Shown here: in pieces, positions 1,356 to 64,000 of the stretch
Position numbering within the stretch: the first letter of the stretch is position 1
Layout of the letters: every line of letters begins with the position of its first letter
Virus record (IMG/VR): IMGVR_UViG_2926584956_000001
Span: 146-64,145 of that record
DNA length: 64,000 nucleotides
Reading direction: 5' to 3' (one strand)
From: a virus
The notes under the pieces: generated by a model
What the model saw: only the letters and a program-made list of their open reading frames with translations
The model's database searches: none
Told to the model about the DNA's origin: nothing
Program-made: the position numbers and the translations under genes

Positions 1356-1601
1356 ATGACACTCACTGAGAAACACCGAGAAGAAGTCGGATTTCTCCGC
1401 CTGGAGCAGGTCCTGGAGTTGGTCCCCGTTGGCCGGTCCACGCTGTATCGGATGATGTCGCAAGGGCAATTCCCGACACCTTGCAAGTTTGGCCACTCTC
1501 GGATGTGGGCCTATGACGAGGTCCGTCGTTGGGCGGGCGGGATGCGCAAGCGCAAAGATGCCTCAGCCGCCCCTCGGCGCAACGACGACGACATCATTTG
1601 A
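1356..1601 (+). CDS. AlpA-family HTH protein (excisionase / recombination directionality factor)
   Basis: 'FLRLEQVLELVPVGRSTLYRMMSQGQFPTPCKFG..RMW' is the AlpA pattern; adjacent to integrase. Confidence 0.88.
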   Translation: MTLTEKHREEVGFLRLEQVLELVPVGRSTLYRMMSQGQFPTPCKFGHSRMWAYDEVRRWAGGMRKRKDASAAPRRNDDDII

Positions 1602-35885: not shown

Positions 35886-36185
35886 TCAGATCATCCCGAG
35901 CGCGTGGAGATAAAGGTCGAGAAGGGCTTCCTCCTCCTGGCGCTCCTCTTTTTCCTTCTTCCGAAGGGCGACCACCTTCCGCATCGTCTTCGTGTCGTAG
36001 CCGTTCGCCTTGGCTTCGGCGTAAACGTCCTTGATGTCGTCGGAGATGGTCTTCTTCTCCTCCTCCAGGTTCTCGATGCGCTCGACGAACTGGCGGAGTT
36101 GATCAGCGGCGACGCCGCCGGCATTCGAGCCGCCGGAGAGGTCGTCCCCGCCAACGACATCATCGTCATCGTAGTTCTTCGCCAT
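35886..36185 (-). CDS. gapR: GapR / DUF2312 (UPF0335) nucleoid-associated protein homolog
   Basis: '[63 protein letters not shown]'. Confidence 0.92.
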
Positions 36186-36943: not shown

Positions 36944-37897
36944 TCAACAAACGTCTTCGTCCTCGATTTCAGTCGAAGGAGCAGGGGGAGCGCCCAGGTG
37001 AGCCGGCAGATCGAAGGGGAGGTCCAGGAGCCCGGCGATCGCCTCGTAGTCCTCGACGGGGATGCGAACCCACCCATCGTGGTCGGACTTCATGCGCTTA
37101 AAACAGCGTTGCAGCTCTTCAACGCGCGCGCTGGTTTTCTCTGCCTTCGTTGGGGCCTTGGGAGCCTTCGGGCTCGGCGCAGGCAAGTCACCTTCACCAC
37201 CTCCCCCTTCATCGGAACCCCTGGGCTCTTTGGCGCTGCGAACATGCTTCGCTGTCGCACGTTCTTTTCCGGCTTCGTTCGCCGCCGCGACGGCATCACG
37301 CAGCACCTTCAGAGCCGCGTCCTCATCACCTCCGCAGCCCTGAACCGTCTCGATTGCCAGGGTGGCGGAGATGCGGCCCTTCCGAACCAGATCCTTGATC
37401 TCGTCGCGCATGTCAGCGAGACCGACCAACTGCGCAACGTACACCCGACTGACCCCGGTCTGCCGTGCGATCTCCGAGTCGCTCAGGCCCAGTTCCTTGA
37501 GCCGCTTGTATACAGTCGCCGTCTCCAACGGCGAGAAGGGCTTCCCCGAGTTGCGGACGATCTGGGAAAGGACGCGATCGGCGTCCGACGCTTCCTTATC
37601 GCTCATCCGGACGCTGAGGAGCATGTCCGGGTCTGCCTCGTACTCCTCGATCGCCCGAAGTGCACCGCGGAAGCGCGACTCGCCGTCTTCGATGTAAAGC
37701 TTCCCGCCCTCCAGATAAGCGGTCAGAGGCTGTTTGACGCCGACGGCCGCGATCGACTGGGCGAGCTTGTCGACGTGTTCCTTGTTCTCCGGGTCGTCAA
37801 AGTCCCGGCTGTTCCAGCCTTCCTTGATGTGGAGGTCCGAGGTGTGAACCCGAAAAAGGTCACTCCGCCCCTTCGCAATATCTTTGATTCCAGCCAT
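36944..37897 (-). CDS. ParB/Srx-like N-terminal domain protein with HTH
   Basis: 'WNSRDF..LAQSIAAVGVKQPL..IEDGESRFRGA', 'PFSPLETATVYKRL..SEIARQTG'. Confidence 0.8.
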   Translation of the reverse strand: MAGIKDIAKGRSDLFRVHTSDLHIKEGWNSRDFDDPENKEHVDKLAQSIAAVGVKQPLTAYLEGGKLYIEDGESRFRGALRAIEEYEADPDMLLSVRMSDKEASDADRVLSQIVRNSGKPFSPLETATVYKRLKELGLSDSEIARQTGVSRVYVAQLVGLADMRDEIKDLVRKGRISATLAIETVQGCGGDEDAALKVLRDAVAAANEAGKERATAKHVRSAKEPRGSDEGGGGEGDLPAPSPKAPKAPTKAEKTSARVEELQRCFKRMKSDHDGWVRIPVEDYEAIAGLLDLPFDLPAHLGAPPAPSTEIEDEDVC

Positions 37898-37962
37898 TGG
37901 TGTCTCCCTTTCCGATAGCGAACAATTACTCTCTAAAATGTGTGAAAGCAATTAGAAAGTGA

Positions 37963-43132: not shown

Positions 43133-43165
43133 GGCCTGTCCTCCAATCAATTATGCGGTCAATAC

Positions 43166-43178
43166 CACTTTTTAAGTG
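43166..43178. promoter_or_regulatory. Palindromic operator-like motif CACTTTTTAAGTG in a divergent promoter region
   Basis: Between the MazG-like gene (left) and the 43249 gene (right). Confidence 0.55.
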
Positions 43179-43219
43179 CTATGCAAACTGAAAAAGTGAA
43201 AATCGTGACCCTTGACCAT

Positions 43220-43234
43220 ATTCTGCTTTTGTTC
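43220..43234 (+). promoter_or_regulatory. Possible alphaproteobacterial LexA box (GTTC-N7-GTTC, one mismatch)
   Basis: ATTC-TGCTTTT-GTTC next to TTGACC at 43212-43217. Confidence 0.35.
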
Positions 43235-43248
43235 TCTTTCTCCACAGC

Positions 43249-43548
43249 ATGGAGATGCGCCTCTGGGAATACCCGTATGTCGTTGTCCGGGTCTCGTGCC
43301 ACGTCTGTCGGCGGCACGGGTCATACCGCCTCGCGCGCCTTGCCGATAAGCACGGCTCGGATATCCCGCTCGATCGGCTCCTGGAGGCGCTGGCGCGTGA
43401 CTGCCCCTGGCGCGACCCCGCAGTGAAACGCAAAGCTCGCCAGGGCGAAGGATGTGGGGCTCACTTCCCCGACGTGGTTGGGCCAAGGCCGCCAGACCTG
43501 CCACCCGGTGGCGGCCTCCGGTTAATCCCAGGTGGAAAAGCCGCCTGA
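43249..43548 (+). CDS. Small Cys-containing (CxxC...CP) protein typical of rhizobial mobile DNA
   Basis: 'VRVSCHVCRRHGSYRLARLADKHG..LARDCPW..CGAHFPD'. Confidence 0.7.
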   Translation: MEMRLWEYPYVVVRVSCHVCRRHGSYRLARLADKHGSDIPLDRLLEALARDCPWRDPAVKRKARQGEGCGAHFPDVVGPRPPDLPPGGGLRLIPGGKAA

Positions 43549-43554
43549 TTTCAA

Positions 43555-43578
43555 TTGATTATAAAGTTCTAAGGTAAG
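43555..43578 (+). repeat. Single upstream copy of the flgE-flanking 24-bp motif
   Basis: TTGATTATAAAGTTCTAAGGTAAG vs downstream TTGATTCTGGAGTTCGAAGGTAAC, same orientation. Confidence 0.75.
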
Positions 43579-43610: not shown

Positions 43611-43634
43611 CCCCGGGGAGCTTACTCCCCAGGG
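43611..43634 (+). promoter_or_regulatory. Hairpin in the flgE 5' leader
   Basis: GGGGAG-CTTA-CTCCCC stem (43615-43630), extendable by CCC/GGG; RBS GGGAG lies downstream. Confidence 0.45.
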
Positions 43635-43652: not shown

Positions 43653-45377
43653 ATGAGCCTATACGGGATGCTGCGGACAGGCGTGTCGGGGATGAACGCG
43701 CAGTCCACGAAACTCTCGACGGTCGGCGACAACATCGCCAACGCCGACACCACCGGATACAAACGCGCCTCGACCGAATTCTCTTCCCTGCTGATGCAGA
43801 ACTCAAAGACTAGCTACAACTCGGGCTCGGTCGTCACCAATGTCCGCTACGCCATCAACCAAGAAGGGCCGCGGATCTACACCACGTCGCCGACCGACCT
43901 CGCGATCAACGGCAGCGGTTTCTTCGTTGTCCAGGACCCCTCGGGGCAGCCCTTCATGACCCGCGCTGGTGGTTTCCAGGTCGACGGTGCGACCGGCCTT
44001 CTGAAGAACCAAGCCGGCTTCACCCTCATGGGTTACGACGTGAGCGGCGGGCAGAACCCAAACGCGGTCCTAAACGGCTTTGCCAACATGGTCCCAGTCG
44101 ACCTGACGGCCATGAATATGCAGGCAACGCCGACGACAGAGGGCACGTTCACCGCGAACCTCGACGCCCGTAAGCCGTCCCTGGCCTCTTTGATCGGGAA
44201 CCTCAGTGGGGGCGAGCCAATAATGGCCGGCGTCACCGCAAGCGCCAACTCAGCCGCCTCGACCTACAATTCCACCACCTCCGTAACGATCGAGGACAAC
44301 CTCGGCAATCCGATTACTTTGGATATCTACTTCAACAAACTCGGCCCCAATACCTGGGAAATGACCACGTTCAACGACGCCGATGGTACGGCAGGCGGTT
44401 TCCCATATACACGTGCCGACAAGCTCGCTCCCGGTGACCCCGATCATCTGGACAACGTGATTCTCAGCTTTGATCCGGTGACAGGGGACCTGAACTCACC
44501 GGATTTCATTGGCTTTGAGTTCTACAATGCCGGAGCTGTTGAGCAGGTCGTCGAGTTCGACATCACTGGAATCACGCAGACCGCCGATCCAACCACGGCA
44601 CTGTCGGCGGAGATTAACGGCAACCTGCCGAGCAACAACGCCATCAACTCGGCCTACACGACGAAATCCTCGATCGAGACCTACGACAATCTGGGCGGCA
44701 CGGTGCTCGTCGACGTCTACATGACGAAGGTGACCGAGGAGCAATGGGAGATCACCACCTTCAACAAGGCCGACGCCGACCCGGTGACCGGAGGCTTTCC
44801 CTACTCTACCGATCCGCTCGCCACGCAGACGGTGACGTTCGATGCGACAACGGGCGAGTTGACCGGTGACATCGACCCGAACACCGGCCTGACATCGCCC
44901 GCGACCACGATGACGCTCCCGATCCCTGGCGGGCAACCGATGACGCTCGACATCGCGGACCTCACGCAGCTCAAGAGCGACTACACGCCCCTGGAGGCCG
45001 ATGTGAACGGCAACGCGGCCAGCACCGTCTCTGACGTCGAGATCGGTGCTGACGGCACCGTCCAGGCCGTCTACGACAACGGCTCGAAGATCCCGGTCTA
45101 TCGCATCCCGCTCGCCGACGTGCCGAGCCCCGACAAGCTCGAACAGATGGCTGGCAACGTGTTCCAGACGACGCTCAACTCGGGCGACATCATGGTCGGC
45201 TTTCCGACCGAGGGGAGCAACGGCGAGATCATCTCGGGCGCCCTGGAACAGTCCAACGTCGACCTCGCGACCGAGTTCACGGAGATGATCGTCGCCCAGC
45301 GGAGCTACACCAGCAACTCGAAGGTCTTTCAGACCGGAAACGAGTTGCTGGAAGTCCTGATGAACCTCAAACGATAG
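43653..45377 (+). CDS. flgE: Flagellar hook protein FlgE (574 aa, tandemly duplicated D2/FlaE domain)
   Basis: N-term 'GVSGMNAQSTKLSTVGDNIANADTTGYK', 'TDLAINGSGFFVV..TRAGGF', C-term 'GALEQSNVDLATEFTEMIVAQRSYTSNSKVFQTGNELLEVLMNLKR'. Confidence 0.96.
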   Translation: MSLYGMLRTGVSGMNAQSTKLSTVGDNIANADTTGYKRASTEFSSLLMQNSKTSYNSGSVVTNVRYAINQEGPRIYTTSPTDLAINGSGFFVVQDPSGQPFMTRAGGFQVDGATGLLKNQAGFTLMGYDVSGGQNPNAVLNGFANMVPVDLTAMNMQATPTTEGTFTANLDARKPSLASLIGNLSGGEPIMAGVTASANSAASTYNSTTSVTIEDNLGNPITLDIYFNKLGPNTWEMTTFNDADGTAGGFPYTRADKLAPGDPDHLDNVILSFDPVTGDLNSPDFIGFEFYNAGAVEQVVEFDITGITQTADPTTALSAEINGNLPSNNAINSAYTTKSSIETYDNLGGTVLVDVYMTKVTEEQWEITTFNKADADPVTGGFPYSTDPLATQTVTFDATTGELTGDIDPNTGLTSPATTMTLPIPGGQPMTLDIADLTQLKSDYTPLEADVNGNAASTVSDVEIGADGTVQAVYDNGSKIPVYRIPLADVPSPDKLEQMAGNVFQTTLNSGDIMVGFPTEGSNGEIISGALEQSNVDLATEFTEMIVAQRSYTSNSKVFQTGNELLEVLMNLKR

Positions 45378-45379
45378 AA

Positions 45380-45514
45380 TTGATTCTGGAGTTCGAAGGT
45401 AACGCGGCGATCGGTTTTGATTCTCAAGATCCAAGGTAATTGATTTCCGCGTTTTGATTCTGGAGTCCTGAGGTAACGGGAATGCCAGTTTTGATTCTCA
45501 AGTTTTGAGGTAAC
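45380..45514 (+). repeat. Four direct repeats with an exact 37-bp period immediately after the flgE stop
   Basis: 24-bp units start at 45380, 45417, 45454, 45491; consensus TTGATTCT(GG/CA)AG-N5-AGGTAA(C/T); 13-bp spacers all end in GTT. Confidence 0.92.
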
Positions 45515-45941
45515 AGATCTGTCATTATCGGGATATGGAGATTGACAAAGCCGGCCAATCCTGGCAAAAAAAAGCAACCTCGAACGATGCGAAAACATTA
45601 ATACTTCCGAATATTCGGAAATAATTTGATAAAAAGTGCGATATTAGCCGATTGCACTTTTCTGTTGCGTTATATTTTCTTTGTGTTACTGATTGACCGC
45701 GCGTTTTATCTTCGGCACATTGCGAGTCGTCGCATCGCTCTTGATGCGTCGCGGGTTGATGACCGCTCGAAAGATAAAGGCGCGTCATGCTATGGGGACT
45801 AAGGACGCAATCGCGTTCCCTATGGTTCGGCGCGGCGGGAAGCCTCACGGCTTGCCGCTTTGTTCCTTGCGGTCTGCTAACCCGCCGTTGCCGAACCGCC
45901 ACGATTAGCAGCGTGGCGCATCAACCAAGGAACATCCCCAA

Positions 45942-47866: not shown

Positions 47867-48523
47867 TCAATGCGTCCAGAAGAAATAATGATGATAATCA
47901 TCGACATAGGCCACGACGTCGCCAGCGCACTGGAAGTCACGCGCGACCGAGTCCCAATCAATATGGCCTTGAAGCCATTCCGGAATCTCCGACATATCGT
48001 GCGTTTCCTCGGTGAATTCTTGCGCCATGTCGCGCCAGCTATCGAAACAACCGCGGTAACGGTCGCTTATGAAATCTTCCGCGTCTTCATCATCATCGGC
48101 ATAATCGTTCATTGCCTCGATAAGGACGGAAACCGGAATCCGCGCATCTTCGGCCGCTTCGGCGATCGTGGCGCGTCGCGCGACTTCGTCGAGCCCGGCA
48201 TATTCGCCAAGCTTGCCGAGTCCCTCGTGATCGTGAATCGCGTATTCCTCAGCCGACCGGAAGCGCTCGACAAGGCGCATCGGGTCGCCGCACTCCGGAC
48301 ATTCCGGAACCGGGTTAGGGCCGAAGTCTGACAGGGTGCGCCGCTTGGTCTCGCCGCAATCGTCGCAAATCCAATCTTCCCGCATGACGTTCGGGCAGGG
48401 CGACGCCTTGAGCATGTCGGAAATTTCCCGCGACATGTCCGCAACATCGTCTGTCGCGTTGATCCATTTGCCGTGCAGGATTCCGTTGTTGTAGGCCGCA
48501 AGATCGGCAACATAAATGCGCAT
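47867..48523 (-). CDS. ardA: Antirestriction protein ArdA
   Basis: 'RIYVADLAAYNNGILHGKWI', 'EEYAIHDHEG', 'YRGCFDSWRDMAQEF', 'HIDWDSVARD'. Confidence 0.88.
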   Translation of the reverse strand: MRIYVADLAAYNNGILHGKWINATDDVADMSREISDMLKASPCPNVMREDWICDDCGETKRRTLSDFGPNPVPECPECGDPMRLVERFRSAEEYAIHDHEGLGKLGEYAGLDEVARRATIAEAAEDARIPVSVLIEAMNDYADDDEDAEDFISDRYRGCFDSWRDMAQEFTEETHDMSEIPEWLQGHIDWDSVARDFQCAGDVVAYVDDYHHYFFWTH

Positions 48524-48569
48524 TGGTTTAGCCTCTAAAGTTATTTTCACTGCAAAGGTGCGTCGCTGA

Positions 48570-49355
48570 TTAAGACGCGCCGAGTCCTTCGGCGAACGAT
48601 GCGCGCAAGCTTTCGTCTCCGGAATAGAAGCCGGGGCAACCGTCGTCGACGTGGTCACCATCGGCCAGCCGCTCGTTTTCTTCCCGCTTGTCCCGAATAT
48701 CGTCGAGCAACCGCGAAACGCGCTCTTTCAGGCTCGCGCAAATGGTCGGGACCTTGACCGGGTCGACGGTCGCGCGGATCTCGCGACGTTCGGCCAGCAG
48801 TGCCTTGACGGTCTCGCGCATGTCGGCGATTTCGGCGCGGTTTTCCGCAACACGCAAGCCAGCGCTCCAGGCGGAGCTATGATCCCGCTCACGTTCGGCG
48901 ATCATCTCCGCCAGACCGTCAGCCCATCGCGCGGCGGTGTATTCCTCGTCTGTAACGTCAAACTCGATACAGGCGGGACCGTCCGCGTCCGCGCTGCCGT
49001 TGATGTCGTTGTCATAGCCGGCAACGAAGCACTCAACGCCATTGCGAGCCGGTATCCGGTAGACCACGCCCCGGACGGTTTCCGATTGGTCGTTATCCGT
49101 GAACCATCCGGTATGCCGGATTGAGCGGCAAACGTCGTCGGCATACCCGACAAACCGCAATCCCGCCGCGCTTGGCTTTTCGATCCATCGGAGAGTCCGC
49201 GATCCAAGCTTGAACGGCGGGTTGATCACGCCACCCCGTGACGGATAACGCGACGCGCCGTCGATAACGTCCCGCCGTGCGCGCTCGATAGCCTCACGAG
49301 CGGCTTTGCCGTTCTGACGGTGCCAGCCGTAAGTGGTTTTCAGGTCAACGCCCAT
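48570..49355 (-). CDS. Hypothetical early protein
   Basis: Preceded by the leader copy at 49365-49393. Confidence 0.65.
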   Translation of the reverse strand: MGVDLKTTYGWHRQNGKAAREAIERARRDVIDGASRYPSRGGVINPPFKLGSRTLRWIEKPSAAGLRFVGYADDVCRSIRHTGWFTDNDQSETVRGVVYRIPARNGVECFVAGYDNDINGSADADGPACIEFDVTDEEYTAARWADGLAEMIAERERDHSSAWSAGLRVAENRAEIADMRETVKALLAERREIRATVDPVKVPTICASLKERVSRLLDDIRDKREENERLADGDHVDDGCPGFYSGDESLRASFAEGLGAS

Positions 49356-49394
49356 TTTCCCAATCTCCGAAAGTTACTTGCACCGGAAAGGTGC

Positions 49395-50964: not shown

Positions 50965-51007
50965 TTTATAGACTCTTTTTGCGAGTCTTAGCAACCAAAA
51001 AGAGTCT
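50965..51007 (-). promoter_or_regulatory. Candidate leftward sigma70 early promoter overlapped by a 12-bp inverted repeat
   Basis: Minus strand TTGCTA (50994-50989)-N18-TATAAA (50970-50965); IR AGACTCTTTTTG (50970-50981) / CAAAAAGAGTCT (50996-51007). Confidence 0.55.
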
Positions 51008-51049
51008 TTTTACGAAGAAAAGCGACGGATCGGGACCACCTGAAATCTA

Positions 51050-51302
51050 GCGGGATCTGACGGGACCCGGTCAGCGCGTCGCATCGGTCGAGCGGTCGAG
51101 ACGTGGCGGGATCTGACGGGACTAGTCGGGAAAACCGCTATATTCGAGCGCGCATAGCGCCTTGTATCGAGCGCTATATTCGAGCGTGCATACCGGTCGG
51201 CGCTCTGTTGGCTGGCACGGCTTGGCTTTAGGTGACACGAAACAGGACGGTACGGGATGCGGCGGGAATTGCTCCGCTCACCGCTATATTCAACCGTGCA
51301 TA
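51050..51302. repeat. Direct repeats in the non-coding region
   Basis: GCGGGATCTGACGGGAC at 51050 and 51106; CGCTATATTC(G/A)A(G/C)CG(C/T)GCATA at 51136, 51172, 51282. Confidence 0.8.
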
Positions 51303-51604
51303 GCGGTGGCCGGTGTGCAGGTTGTTGCAGTCATCGGGTGGCACGGGACGGGACTGTCCGGGAGTAATGCGGACGGGTCGGGACATGACCATCGCGTTGG
51401 ATCAGGTGCGCGGCTGAGACGTGGCGGGATTAGGTGGGACGCAGCGGGACCGGGCGGCACGGGTTGGCATTGGATGGGCGTTCGGATGTGCCGGGTGACC
51501 GGGTGGCTCGGGGTCCTTCCTGGGATTCGGGTGTACCGCGGGGGAGCACCGACCCCGGAGCTTGAGAGTTTTCAGAAAAAATTCCGATGATTTTCGATGG
51601 GCGA

Positions 51605-51927
51605 AATTGCCGGGCGCCACCCGGCAATTACCCGGCAATTTACCCGGCAATTTACCCGGCAATTTTCGAGAGTTAAGTATATGAATATAAAGAGTTTTCT
51701 ATCTCTTATCTGTAATTGCCGGGTAACTTCGGAGACCCTGTGGTGAAACGGTATCATATTACCGGGTCCCTCTCGTCGTGAGGGGTTCACTCCCCCCAGG
51801 GGAACGGGGGGTGCGCAAAAACGCCCGGCAATTTCTCTAATAACTCAACGATTTCAATAACTTAACCCTCTAAAATTGCCGGGTAAATTGCCGGGTAAAC
51901 TGCCGGGTACCCCGGGTAATTGCCGGG
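51605..51927. repeat. Iteron-like AATTGCCGGG repeat cluster in both orientations (candidate origin or packaging site)
   Basis: AATTGCCGGG at 51605, 51714, 51874, 51886, 51918 (variant 51898); CCCGGCAATT at 51620, 51631, 51643, 51655, 51824; AT-rich tracts between. Confidence 0.85.
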
Positions 51928-52802
51928 TGAAGCCAATTCGGGGGTGAAAACAGGCCGAAATCGCAGAAATCGTTGGTCGTAGTCCCAGTTCGTCTCACCG
52001 ATTTAATCACTCGCAGATCAACCGAATTTCCGGAAAATGCGCTCGAAAATTAAATGCGGGCCGCCGAATTAATCGTCAGCCCGTCGCGCGGCGCCGAGAT
52101 TGACATCTTGATCCGACTGAACGACCGTTTAGGGGCACAGAACGTCGATTAGCTGATTATAAATTGGCTGAAATTGTCGGTTTGTGCACTTCACTACCCG
52201 CGGTCCCGGTAGTTGCCACAGCCCCACGCAGCCCCGGCTTACCGGGACCGCACCCTTGGATACTGGCTCGCGAAGATGGTCCATCGGACCTTCAGAGGCG
52301 TCAGCCTTCGGGGCGGAGCGGGCGACGGGGCCGCGCGATTGTCAGCCAAGATGAACCGCGCGCCCCCGTTCTTCAGATAGCAGGGCCGCAGCCGGTCGCC
52401 CCCTGTCGTGTAGACCCCACCGGGATTTTGACACCGGCCGCTAGGCTGTGCTCTTGACCCACTGCGGTTCCGGCGATCGCACGCTTGCCTCTCACCCCTG
52501 CCACCGGTCGCTGGAACCGCACCCCTCCAGTTCTCGCCTCCATCACAGGGAGGCCGCCCAGGCGCGTCGAGCCTCGGACCCGTCACCGGTCGCCCGGCGC
52601 CCGCGATGGCCACACACGGGCCTCTGTGTTGATCTGAGGGGGTGTTGGCGAGGTATCTGCGCGCCACGGGACACCCGGCAGCCTAGAATGCCGTTTCCCG
52701 GCGCAGGGGAGCCCACCTGTGAGCTTCAGCGGCAATCCGGCATCAGAGAGCCCTCAACCCTCAAAGGCGCTCAGTAGGCTCCTGTGTGGCCCACAAAAGA
52801 AA

Positions 52803-63110: not shown

Positions 63111-63195
63111 AAGTGCCGAATCACTTTCGAAATTGACACTTATCTCCGCATGGCTTATGTCAAGCACATAATTTGGCGTGAGAGAGTGTTCAACG

Positions 63196-63927
63196 ATGTC
63201 CCAGGAAGTCCCAGAAAATACCGCCCCGGCTCACCCAGAGTTTGCCAAGCGCTTCAAGACGGCATGCGATAATTATTCCCAGTGCCCACCGATGCAGAAG
63301 GGCCGGCTTGTTTGGATTCGTGATAATCTGGAATCGAGATTTAACATATCCGTAAAAGGCGAAGCAGTTCGTAAATGGCACTCTGGTATTGCCATCCCTC
63401 GCCCTAAAACCCTGTCAGCCCTGGCGAAGCTCCTCCATGTGGACGATGGCTGGCTTGCCTTCGGCCTGGAGAGCGAAGTCCCGTCGGCCGAGCGGAAATC
63501 CCGCCTTCTTTCAGATGACGGAGCGGCCAACATCGTCGTCGGCTTCATTCAGATGTCCGGCGGGTATTGCGCCTTCCCCGAGGACGGCGATCCCGATTGG
63601 ATCGACTTCTATGCGATTCTCCGTGCCAAGCAGCGCAAGATTATGGTCTGCCCCTACCGCGACGGCGAGGGCGACAGCGGTCACTTCGAGGTTCCGAATG
63701 AACATCGTAATGGAATTGCCCTCGGCGTCTTTCGCACCGGCCCGACCTCGATCGACCTCTTCGTTCTGCCGAGTGAATGGATCGAGGAATTCGGAGAGCC
63801 CCGCGGCCCCTTCATCACGGCACCCGTGAAGCACTCGGGCAAGAAATGTCTGATGGGCGGGAAGGTACTCATGCCGATCCAGAACGTGGTAGATGAGCTG
63901 GTTGGTTCTCTGGACCGCTTGGGTTAG
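63196..63927 (+). CDS. XRE-family HTH repressor (CI-like) with non-S24 C-terminal domain
   Basis: 'EFAKRFKTA..EAVRKWHSGIAIPRPKTLSALAKLLHVDDGWLAFG'; lies next to the right end. Confidence 0.75.
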   Translation: MSQEVPENTAPAHPEFAKRFKTACDNYSQCPPMQKGRLVWIRDNLESRFNISVKGEAVRKWHSGIAIPRPKTLSALAKLLHVDDGWLAFGLESEVPSAERKSRLLSDDGAANIVVGFIQMSGGYCAFPEDGDPDWIDFYAILRAKQRKIMVCPYRDGEGDSGHFEVPNEHRNGIALGVFRTGPTSIDLFVLPSEWIEEFGEPRGPFITAPVKHSGKKCLMGGKVLMPIQNVVDELVGSLDRLG

Positions 63928-63938
63928 ACCCTCTCGTT

Positions 63939-63957
63939 CATGGTATTGGCCATGGTA
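63939..63957. promoter_or_regulatory. Candidate integrase arm-type sites (CATGGTA x2) near the right prophage end
   Basis: Mirror the heptamers at 8-40. Confidence 0.45.
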
Positions 63958-64000
63958 CCGGCCAATTCAGCCAATCTATTTGTCTTTGATTTTCAATATC

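Follow-up and report, generated by a model that had tools for sequence, protein, structure and literature searches.

Oriented two-box repeats at the edges of a moron slot beside a C4 antisense RNA/antirepressor switch in a family of temperate siphophages

The stretch of DNA considered here (the window, 64,000 nucleotides (nt) of IMG/VR record IMGVR_UViG_2926584956_000001) belongs to a temperate siphophage of 64 kb, in which a short asymmetric repeat occurs five times around a host-derived hook gene, flgE. The accessory slot that holds this cargo consists of ORF99 (ORF, open reading frame), unit 0 of the repeat, flgE, and then four further units in tandem, the first of which starts 2 nt past the flgE stop codon. 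An AT-rich stretch (45520-45720; guanine plus cytosine (GC) content, 34%) lies beside the array, and a C4 RNA/antirepressor module that was overlooked in the preliminary description of this DNA starts about 85 bp past it (Table 1). All five units lie on the + strand, together with flgE, C4, and ant, and this co-orientation holds in all of the related phages described below.

Table 1. Positions of the repeat units, the cargo genes, the adjoining switch, and a small ORF discussed in the text.
Feature	Position	Strand	Basis or remark
Promoter-like head of the rightward accessory island	43150..43248	+	sequence; promoter function predicted
ORF99, small cargo ORF	43249..43548	+	stop 6 nt 5' of unit 0
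Unit 0 of the repeat, 5' of flgE	43555..43578	+	motif search, position weight matrix
GC-rich leader hairpin 5' of the flgE ribosome-binding site	43611..43634	+	read from sequence
flgE cargo gene, 574 amino acids (aa)	43653..45377	+	Pfam, NCBIfam, nt comparison with host
Four-unit array, exact 37-bp period (45380, 45417, 45454, 45491)	45380..45514	+	motif search
Sigma-70-like promoter match overlapping a perfect 16-bp palindrome (45605-45620)	45598..45625	+	promoter scan
7-bp leader hairpin with U-run	45636..45666	+	read from sequence
C4-type antisense RNA	45818..45903	+	Rfam RF01695, 58.5 bits vs gathering score 45
C4 target boxes b2 (TTAGCAG, 45905-45911) and a2 (CAAGGAACA, 45926-45934)	45905..45934	+	complementarity
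Rha/Ant-like antirepressor gene, 174 aa	45942..46466	+	phrog_63 anti-repressor Ant, E = 2.6e-6
AlpA/Xis-like ORF	1356-1601		

The five copies listed in the preliminary description, which start at 43555, 45380, 45417, 45454, and 45491 on the + strand with start-to-start spacings of 1825, 37, 37, and 37 bp, were all recovered. Each unit is an asymmetric two-box site of 24 bp, in which the conserved boxes, TTGATTCT and AGGTAA, lie 9 nt apart and the gap between them holds a conserved AG. Conservation is concentrated in the two boxes: the four tandem units have 17 columns without any variation, of which 16 belong to the 24-bp unit (hypergeometric P = 6e-4), and the spacers of 13 nt are unrelated (23-46% identity). 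The degenerate pattern matches five times in the window, compared with 0.01 matches expected from shuffled sequences, and a pattern search of the 4.7-Mb genome at up to two mismatches returns just these five copies. In a genome scan with a position weight matrix (PWM) built from them, the copies score 38-42 bits and the best of all other sites scores 18.9 bits. The repeat is real and under selection, and it is confined to the phage.

The alternation of the units as A-B-A-B (CTGGAG/CTCAAG), which had been remarked on before, is borne out by the 65-73% identity over 37 bp between units 74 bp apart, as against 59-70% between neighbors, and reflects an old duplication of a 74-bp A-B dimer. The accompanying remark that the spacers end in GTT is correct for the three internal spacers and wrong for the stretch after unit 4. 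Tandem Repeats Finder does not report the array, because the spacers are too divergent. No inverted repeats were found within or between units, and the predicted fold of the array does not differ significantly from that of shuffled sequences (z = -1.3). Searches for the exact motif returned only chance matches and no second example, with two single matches in IMG/VR, 50 in GTDB genomes, and, in Joint Genome Institute (JGI) metagenomes, 0 matches and then 90. One of the GTDB matches is a low-GC 'Rhizobium sp.' contig from a metagenome-assembled genome, which is unrelated; among the metagenome matches are a tandem repeat of eukaryotic appearance with a period of 37 bp and an intergenic region of a soil bacterium with two loosely similar copies. 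A BLAST comparison with phages and plasmids gave flgE as the sole match.

Repeats with a related core occur at the same place in related prophages. A search with Ant as the probe found two IMG/VR proviruses, G061 (locus L020) and G062 (locus L021), that contain a C4 RNA and ant, and in both of them, as in the window, a co-oriented array (AGATTTCTCY) lies directly 5' of an AT-rich, palindrome-bearing region, the C4 RNA, and ant. The repeat is present in six copies in L020 and in four copies in L021, where the spacings are 39, 37, and 17 bp and the first copy lies 3 nt past the stop codon of an unrelated secreted-protein gene. A scan for two copies of the pattern added five further GC-rich phage contigs with arrays (G411, G412, G413, G414, and G415). 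The near-complete G061, G062, G412, and G414 each have about 25-35 genes in common with the window, and the partial record G413 has about eight, in all cases at 30-68% aa identity. The genes common to the window, G061, G062, and G412-G414 encode integrase, terminase, portal, capsid, tail, methylase, GapR, MazG-like, primase, exonuclease, polymerase, helicase, and repressor-like proteins. The partial loci G411 and G415 have the MazG-like gene in common with the window, together with a match to phrog_8188 (G411) or a GapR-like match. These phages form a family of temperate siphophages of Rhizobiales-like hosts.

In all seven relatives, the arrays are co-oriented (ATTT(T)CTCY) and reside in an island between the MazG-like gene and the early/primase operon, and the units point away from MazG in all six relatives whose backbone can be oriented. 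The 37-39-bp spacing of the window recurs in L021 and G413, and 14 of the 28 start-to-start spacings in the relatives are 17, 27, or 37 bp. The unit of the relatives reads GATTTCTCYGAGGT and has a contiguous core, GATT(T)CTCY-GAGG(T), while that of the window consists of GATTCTC, about 7 nt, and then (G/A)AGGTAA, so that the second box also has a counterpart in the relatives. The window unit is taken as a diverged, split version of the relatives' two boxes on account of the 8-9-nt similarity, the position, the orientation, the copy number, and the recurring 37-bp spacing; this is a probable relationship rather than a statistical proof. An oriented repeat family of this kind at the edges of the moron slot of one prophage family has not been reported previously. 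The phage of L021 also carries different tandem repeats of 30-33 bp at the end of its early operon (L203, 12166-12560).

These comparisons bear on whether the array is simply a neutral local duplication that is private to the window phage and resembles the repeats of its relatives by chance. The exact motif occurs nowhere else, and the A-B-A-B pattern shows that a 74-bp duplication took place, as this explanation would have it. However, a fifth copy with both boxes lies 1.8 kb away, conservation is confined to the boxes, and the analogous arrays of the relatives match in position, orientation, and copy number, which together make a purely neutral origin very improbable.

The content of the slot differs from phage to phage. 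G061 has two units, two unrelated secreted-protein genes, and two units; G412 has a single unit followed, after 1.5 kb of antisense genes, by four units; and G413 has five units, an 8-kb operon, and six units. Cargo ORFs that are co-oriented with the units end 2-6 nt 5' of a unit, in six cases out of six. A phrog_2320-like gene adjoins the array in G062, G412, and G414, each time in a different orientation or position. The head of the island in the window carries the element AAGTGAAAAT and a CACT-N5-AGTG palindrome, with a degenerate copy of the relatives' repeat core (CTTTCTCC) directly before the ATG of ORF99, and an element of the form AAGTGAAA(A/T)T also precedes the first repeat in L020/G061 and L158/G412. 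ORF99 itself has no Pfam, PHROG, or NCBIfam match and no homologue in the related phages. In the secreted-protein genes of G061, codons 3-7 (RFLRG) are the repeat itself. The two unrelated secreted or lipoprotein genes of this region (L020 2623-3578; G061 48401-49356) both begin M-x-RFLRG, and the unit therefore supplies the start of their signal peptides.

Break-points could be compared in G061 and G412, the only pair that is alignable, with about 80% nt identity in the flanks. On the left, the two phages are homologous up to exactly the 3' edge of the first unit. They have unrelated cargo between the units, and the terminal units are the only part of the variable region that aligns; the C4-ant module occurs in G061 and not in G412, and homology resumes past the module. 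Arrays have also grown by local duplication, of 74 bp in the window and of 17 and 91 bp in G413. At the joints of lambdoid mosaics, short conserved boundary sequences have been proposed to act as recombination linkers, although they are not identifiable at most boundaries (PMC3029335). The present repeats resemble such linkers in that homology breaks at short conserved sequences with different modules on either side, as seen in this one pair, and differ from them in that several copies, each with two conserved boxes, are arrayed strictly in one direction and a 37-bp spacing recurs. These features suggest recognition of the units by something, beyond a mere patch of identity.

The units could nevertheless be passive linkers or scars that are neither bound nor regulatory, with homologous or microhomology-mediated exchange regenerating them at cargo junctions and with gene-less arrays arising by unequal crossing-over or slippage. 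The position of the break-points exactly at unit edges, the different cargo in every phage, the shifting place of the phrog_2320-like gene, and the growth of arrays by local duplication are all as expected on this account. It leaves unexplained why the boxes are invariant in five copies while the sequence between them is randomized, which would be unexpected if about 8 bp of identity sufficed for rare exchange, and why co-orientation is strict in every phage and the 37-bp spacing exact in three of them; arrays of 4-8 units would, moreover, serve no purpose. A wholly passive role is thus considered unlikely.

Exchange could also be site-specific. The preliminary description proposed recombination sites of a cassette-capture array, with flgE as one filled slot, and part of this proposal has stood up, since different genes lie between the copies in relatives and homology between G061 and G412 breaks at repeat edges. 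In a system of this type, modules of an ORF plus a 24-bp unit would be inserted, excised, or inverted by a phage recombinase or an Xis/AlpA-type factor at one-directional sites, following an integron-like logic in which the gene-less 37-bp units would be empty slots. The ORF-then-unit modules with their 2-6-nt junctions, the direct repeats that bracket the cargo, the two unrelated G061 proteins that take the same first codons from the unit, the exact 'empty' period of 37 bp, and three TTGATTTT copies near int/attP and the AlpA/Xis-like gene all fit such a system. As in integron cassettes (ORF plus attC, with IntI), the order is ORF and then site, the orientation is direct, the cargo is variable, and gene-less units occur.

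The likeness to integrons does not extend further. The 24-bp units lack the imperfect palindrome of attC (about 57-141 bp, R''-L''/L'-R') and any other inverted-repeat or hairpin structure, and there is neither an integron integrase nor an attI/Pc arrangement. The sole recombinase found is an ordinary P4-type integrase (65-1282), which lies 19-43 kb from the units and matches generic phage integrase models (phrog_1; the NCBIfam PRK09692 domain, below cut-off) and no integron-integrase model. The arrays of the relatives have no copy near their int genes. No excised circle, deletion form, or empty flgE site was seen in the single public DNA run, which is a weak test, as it was available as contigs only and rare forms cannot show there. 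A site-specific cassette system is accordingly held to be rather improbable; if it existed, it would be undescribed, would give captured genes their start codons and the beginnings of their signal peptides, and would load host genes such as flgE beside an immunity switch.

The flgE gene itself is captured cargo derived from a host. Pfam and NCBIfam confirm the earlier identification as a true, full-length FlgE. The first 518 nt and the last 452 nt of the gene match the host flgE (C6:10991-12220) with 85% nt identity. The ATG and the stop codon are the outer limits of this match, and no host likeness was found in the leader 5' of flgE or in the array 3' of it; a host-like genome is proposed as the source. 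The phage protein has 574 aa compared with about 410 aa for the host copy and contains two FlgE_D2 stretches according to Pfam, and the center of the gene (44230-44990) has no nt match to the host gene. A stray flgE fragment lies in a non-flagellar context elsewhere in the host (G000:C1:1570271-1570413), where it breaks the assembly graph; it comprises 84 nt at 90% identity to phage flgE 45003-45086 and an adjoining 72 nt at 81%.

The preliminary description also suggested that the array binds a host flagellar regulator or encodes an RNA that silences host flgE. The first of these was abandoned, as nothing close to the motif turned up when all 13 contigs were searched with the pattern and scanned with the PWM. 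The second fares no better, since the units have no complementarity to the host flagellar cluster on C6, which is clear of hits while chance 12-16-mers occur elsewhere, and the bipartite C4 target is present only in the phage. Other regulators were considered as well. Readings of the unit as a sigma-70, sigma-54, sigma-28, extracytoplasmic function (ECF) sigma factor, CtrA, integration host factor (IHF), or DnaA-box site were compared by eye and none fits, and a promoter scan found nothing in the array. The TGATTCT of units 1-4 fits the extended GcrA/CcrM motif; this reading was rejected, as GANTC is absent from unit 0 and from all units of the relatives.

The module 3' of the array is a switch of the P1 immI type. 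The palindromic promoter match is presumed, from its sequence, to be the operator and promoter of the C4-ant operon, and the relatives have palindromes of their own at the equivalent position. The hairpin that follows has a weak STnc430-like match over its terminator part and may be an IsrK-type leader terminator or, alternatively, the terminator of flgE. In the C4 RNA, loop a' lies at 45859-45868 and the single-stranded b' at 45874-45880; b2 and a2 are their perfect complements over 7 nt (to b') and 9 nt (to a'), and a2 covers the ribosome-binding site (RBS) of ant. Genome-wide, there is one C4 and one bipartite C4 target, both of them in the phage. The Ant ORF also has a weak Phage_pRha match, below the Pfam cut-off, and its homologues follow C4 or sRNA-Xcc1 RNAs in 4 of 9 IMG/VR loci. 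At the leader positions that correspond by homology to the relatives' a1/b1 (TTGATGA, 45755-45761; AAGATAAAGG, 45771-45780), the sequence does not fit the C4 loops of the window, and it looks as if the C4/target pair has been swapped in this phage.

In the immI region of phages P1 and P7 (c4 antisense RNA, a/b boxes, and icd-ant), the roles of c4 and Ant have been described (PMC8546580). The window module is alike in its C4 RNA, its perfect b2/a2 boxes over an RBS, and its antirepressor-like gene. In contrast to P1/P7, the upstream a1/b1 positions mismatch the resident C4, the Ant protein is a short Rha-like protein, icd is missing, and the repeat array lies outside the known module.

With such a switch next to it, the array might act at the RNA level, in the flgE 3' untranslated region or in island transcripts, either as a Shine–Dalgarno (SD)-like or anti-SD-like element that affects translation or stability or as a mimic of C4-type target boxes (b-box TTGATTC, a-box AAGGTAAC) that titrates an antisense RNA. 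The units do lie on the strand of flgE, C4, and ant, with no terminator between the flgE stop codon and unit 1; their box layout (8 nt, 9, 7) is similar to that of a C4 target (7, 15, 9); a pairing of 7 bp, with one bulge, is possible between the a-box and the resident C4 loop; the mismatching leader positions faintly resemble the unit boxes; and the core of the relatives is the exact complement of their common RBS. Set against this, the fold of the array is not significant, and no RNA in the genome is complementary to both boxes; there is a single C4, whose b' leaves the b-box unpaired. A general role in messenger RNA is further opposed by the G412 cargo, which is antisense to the units, by one G413 array that lies 5' of a divergent gene, and by the SD-like sense, which falls on opposite strands in the window and the relatives. 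The host also lacks CsrA. An RNA-level function is therefore given only a small probability.

Several more specific RNA identities were rejected. The units are not cognate a/b boxes of the resident C4, with which the a-box pairs only through a bulge and the b-box does not pair; nor are they a decoy for another resident C4, as the genome contains a single C4 and lacks any a'/b' pair that is complementary to them. A CsrA sponge of the CsrB/RsmZ type is contradicted by the absence of CsrA from the 97%-complete host genome and by the restriction of GGA to A-type units. The preliminary description had also raised the possibility of a processed ToxI-like antitoxin RNA, and a period of about 36-37 nt on the coding strand is indeed a point of likeness. 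However, type III units are near-identical over the full 34-45-nt unit, are folded, and lie 5' of a ToxN-family gene, none of which applies here: the spacers are unrelated, the units have no individual fold, and Pfam detects no ToxN/AbiQ-family domain in neighboring ORFs, the array being followed by C4 and ant. This idea was dropped.

The AT-rich stretch beside the array also invites comparison with the iterons of a replication origin, four direct repeats adjoining a region of 34% GC. In P1, the incC and incA iterons flank repA, and the arrays of the relatives likewise flank genes. The window nevertheless has no initiator gene next to the array, its AT-rich stretch is explained by the C4-ant promoter and leader, and a much stronger candidate for the origin exists at 51.0-52.0 kb, where three families of repeats and an AT-rich core adjoin the primase operon; an origin at the array is considered very improbable. 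The non-coding region 51000-52000 contains a 12-bp repeat, ACCCGGCAATTT, in four copies, with inverted copies lying about 210 bp away around the AT-rich core, as well as CGCTATATTCGAGCG-type repeats and GGGAC-rich repeats, and is likely, from this sequence arrangement, to be the replication origin.

The explanation tentatively preferred for the repeats is that they are protein-recognized boundary or insulator elements of the moron slot at which crossing-over also takes place. A phage-encoded protein that binds DNA in a sequence-specific manner would recognize the units, and the arrays, oriented from the MazG-like operon to the early/primase operon, would mark the limits of the accessory slot and keep lysogen-expressed cargo (ORF99 and flgE) insulated from the adjoining immunity switch formed by the palindromic operator/promoter, the C4 antisense RNA, and the antirepressor. 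The same units would double as cross-over points for the exchange of cargo among related phages, because they are the sole conserved sequence in the variable region, and unequal exchange or local duplication would build gene-less runs such as the four units of the window with their 74-bp A-B dimer. Protein binding, the block to transcription, and exchange by homologous recombination at the units are each suggested by the arrangement of the sequence. Candidate binders are the AlpA/Xis-like, repressor-like, and ParB-helix-turn-helix (HTH) proteins, which have no co-occurrence support.

The nearest known mode of action is the orientation-dependent block to elongation at the stoperators of mycobacteriophages L5 and Bxb1 (Cluster A), which are asymmetric 13-bp repressor sites that stop elongation (PMC9283540, PMC3029335). 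The sites of the window are similarly asymmetric and one-directional and lie in short intergenic spaces by start and stop codons. In contrast, L5-type phages have 24-34 sites dispersed over the genome, the early lytic promoter included, with a cognate monomeric two-domain repressor that binds them and blocks elongation; the window phage has five, clustered within 2 kb, its repressor-like protein has no detectable relation to the gp71 type, and in one relative the cargo is antisense to the sites. Recognizable oriented repeats here mark both edges of a slot across a Rhizobiales prophage family, at mosaic joints where such sequences are rarely found, which makes the gain and swapping of morons and their transcriptional separation from the lysis-lysogeny switch directly testable. 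The cargo is unusual in being a host-derived hook gene with an enlarged D2 region, in a prophage that had earlier been likened to the flagellotropic phage Chi, and, as it lies beside the C4/antirepressor switch, this locus could connect immunity control with lysogenic conversion of the flagellum.

A number of observations weigh against such boundary elements. The homology to the relatives' core rests on 8-9 nt with small gaps, plus position and orientation, and no second instance of the exact window motif was found in IMG/VR, GTDB genomes, or JGI metagenomes. The relatives' units are irregularly spaced, and many of the spacings of 17 bp come from recent tandem copies and are therefore not independent. 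The break-point evidence comes from one phage pair, and the sites, being few and clustered, differ from dispersed stoperators. Arrays are absent from L201, L202, L313, and L314, whose MazG or phrog_8188 genes are the nearest to those of the window. Strict co-occurrence with the arrays was seen for no gene, and co-occurrence did not point to a binding protein; phrog_8188, ParB-HTH, GapR, AlpA-like, and repressor-like proteins were each considered as binders and set aside, as none of them co-occurs specifically with arrays. Finally, GGAGAAAT, the reverse complement of the relatives' core, is the commonest RBS of these phages, dispersed single copies of the core are RBSs of opposite-strand genes and the source of a strong strand bias, and one G413 array opens with a unit that is itself the RBS of a leftward gene; part of the family may therefore be RBS-derived or act at the RNA level.

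The window corresponds to nearly all of contig C8 (64,173 bp), which has a 19-bp terminal overlap and a GC content of 60%, compared with 66-67% for the host contigs. The ends of C8 (window -144 to -50; 63934-64028) have 95 bp in common with the end of C7 and the start of C9, and the phage is therefore integrated between these two contigs. Unitig depth in the public run is about 515-620 for the phage and 179 for one host unitig, which, subject to the caveats that attach to such depths, suggests extra phage copies and hints at spontaneous induction or replication. Genes for the head, tail, and integration encode the P4-type integrase, the AlpA/Xis-like ORF, terminase subunits, portal, protease, capsid, and tail proteins, and an ORF of 1604 aa is probably the tape measure. 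Replication and control genes encode a primase, an exonuclease, a Gp2.5-like single-stranded DNA-binding protein, a family-A polymerase, a helicase, and the repressor-like protein, and further genes encode a DNA methylase, the GapR homologue, the ParB-HTH protein (ORF 36944-37951), a ligase, the MazG-like pyrophosphatase, and ArdA.

The repressor-like ORF (63178-63927) has weak matches only to phrog_2967 and phrog_4 and no match to a solved structure. Around int/attP (window 63939-63964; C8 130-190), there are about six CATGGTAYC repeats in addition to the three TTGATTTT copies, which are possible candidates for arm-type or repressor sites, and the TTGATTTT copies show a likeness to box 1 of the unit. 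The GapR nucleoid-protein homologue (35886-36185, - strand; Pfam E = 1.8e-35) has 79% nt identity to a host locus on C3 and is the best conserved small protein among the related phages (49-68% aa). Just 5' of many start codons in the window (43166, 47529, 47854, 40303, 12717, and others) lie CACY-N5-RGTG palindromes, which often have CAAGTAACT after them.

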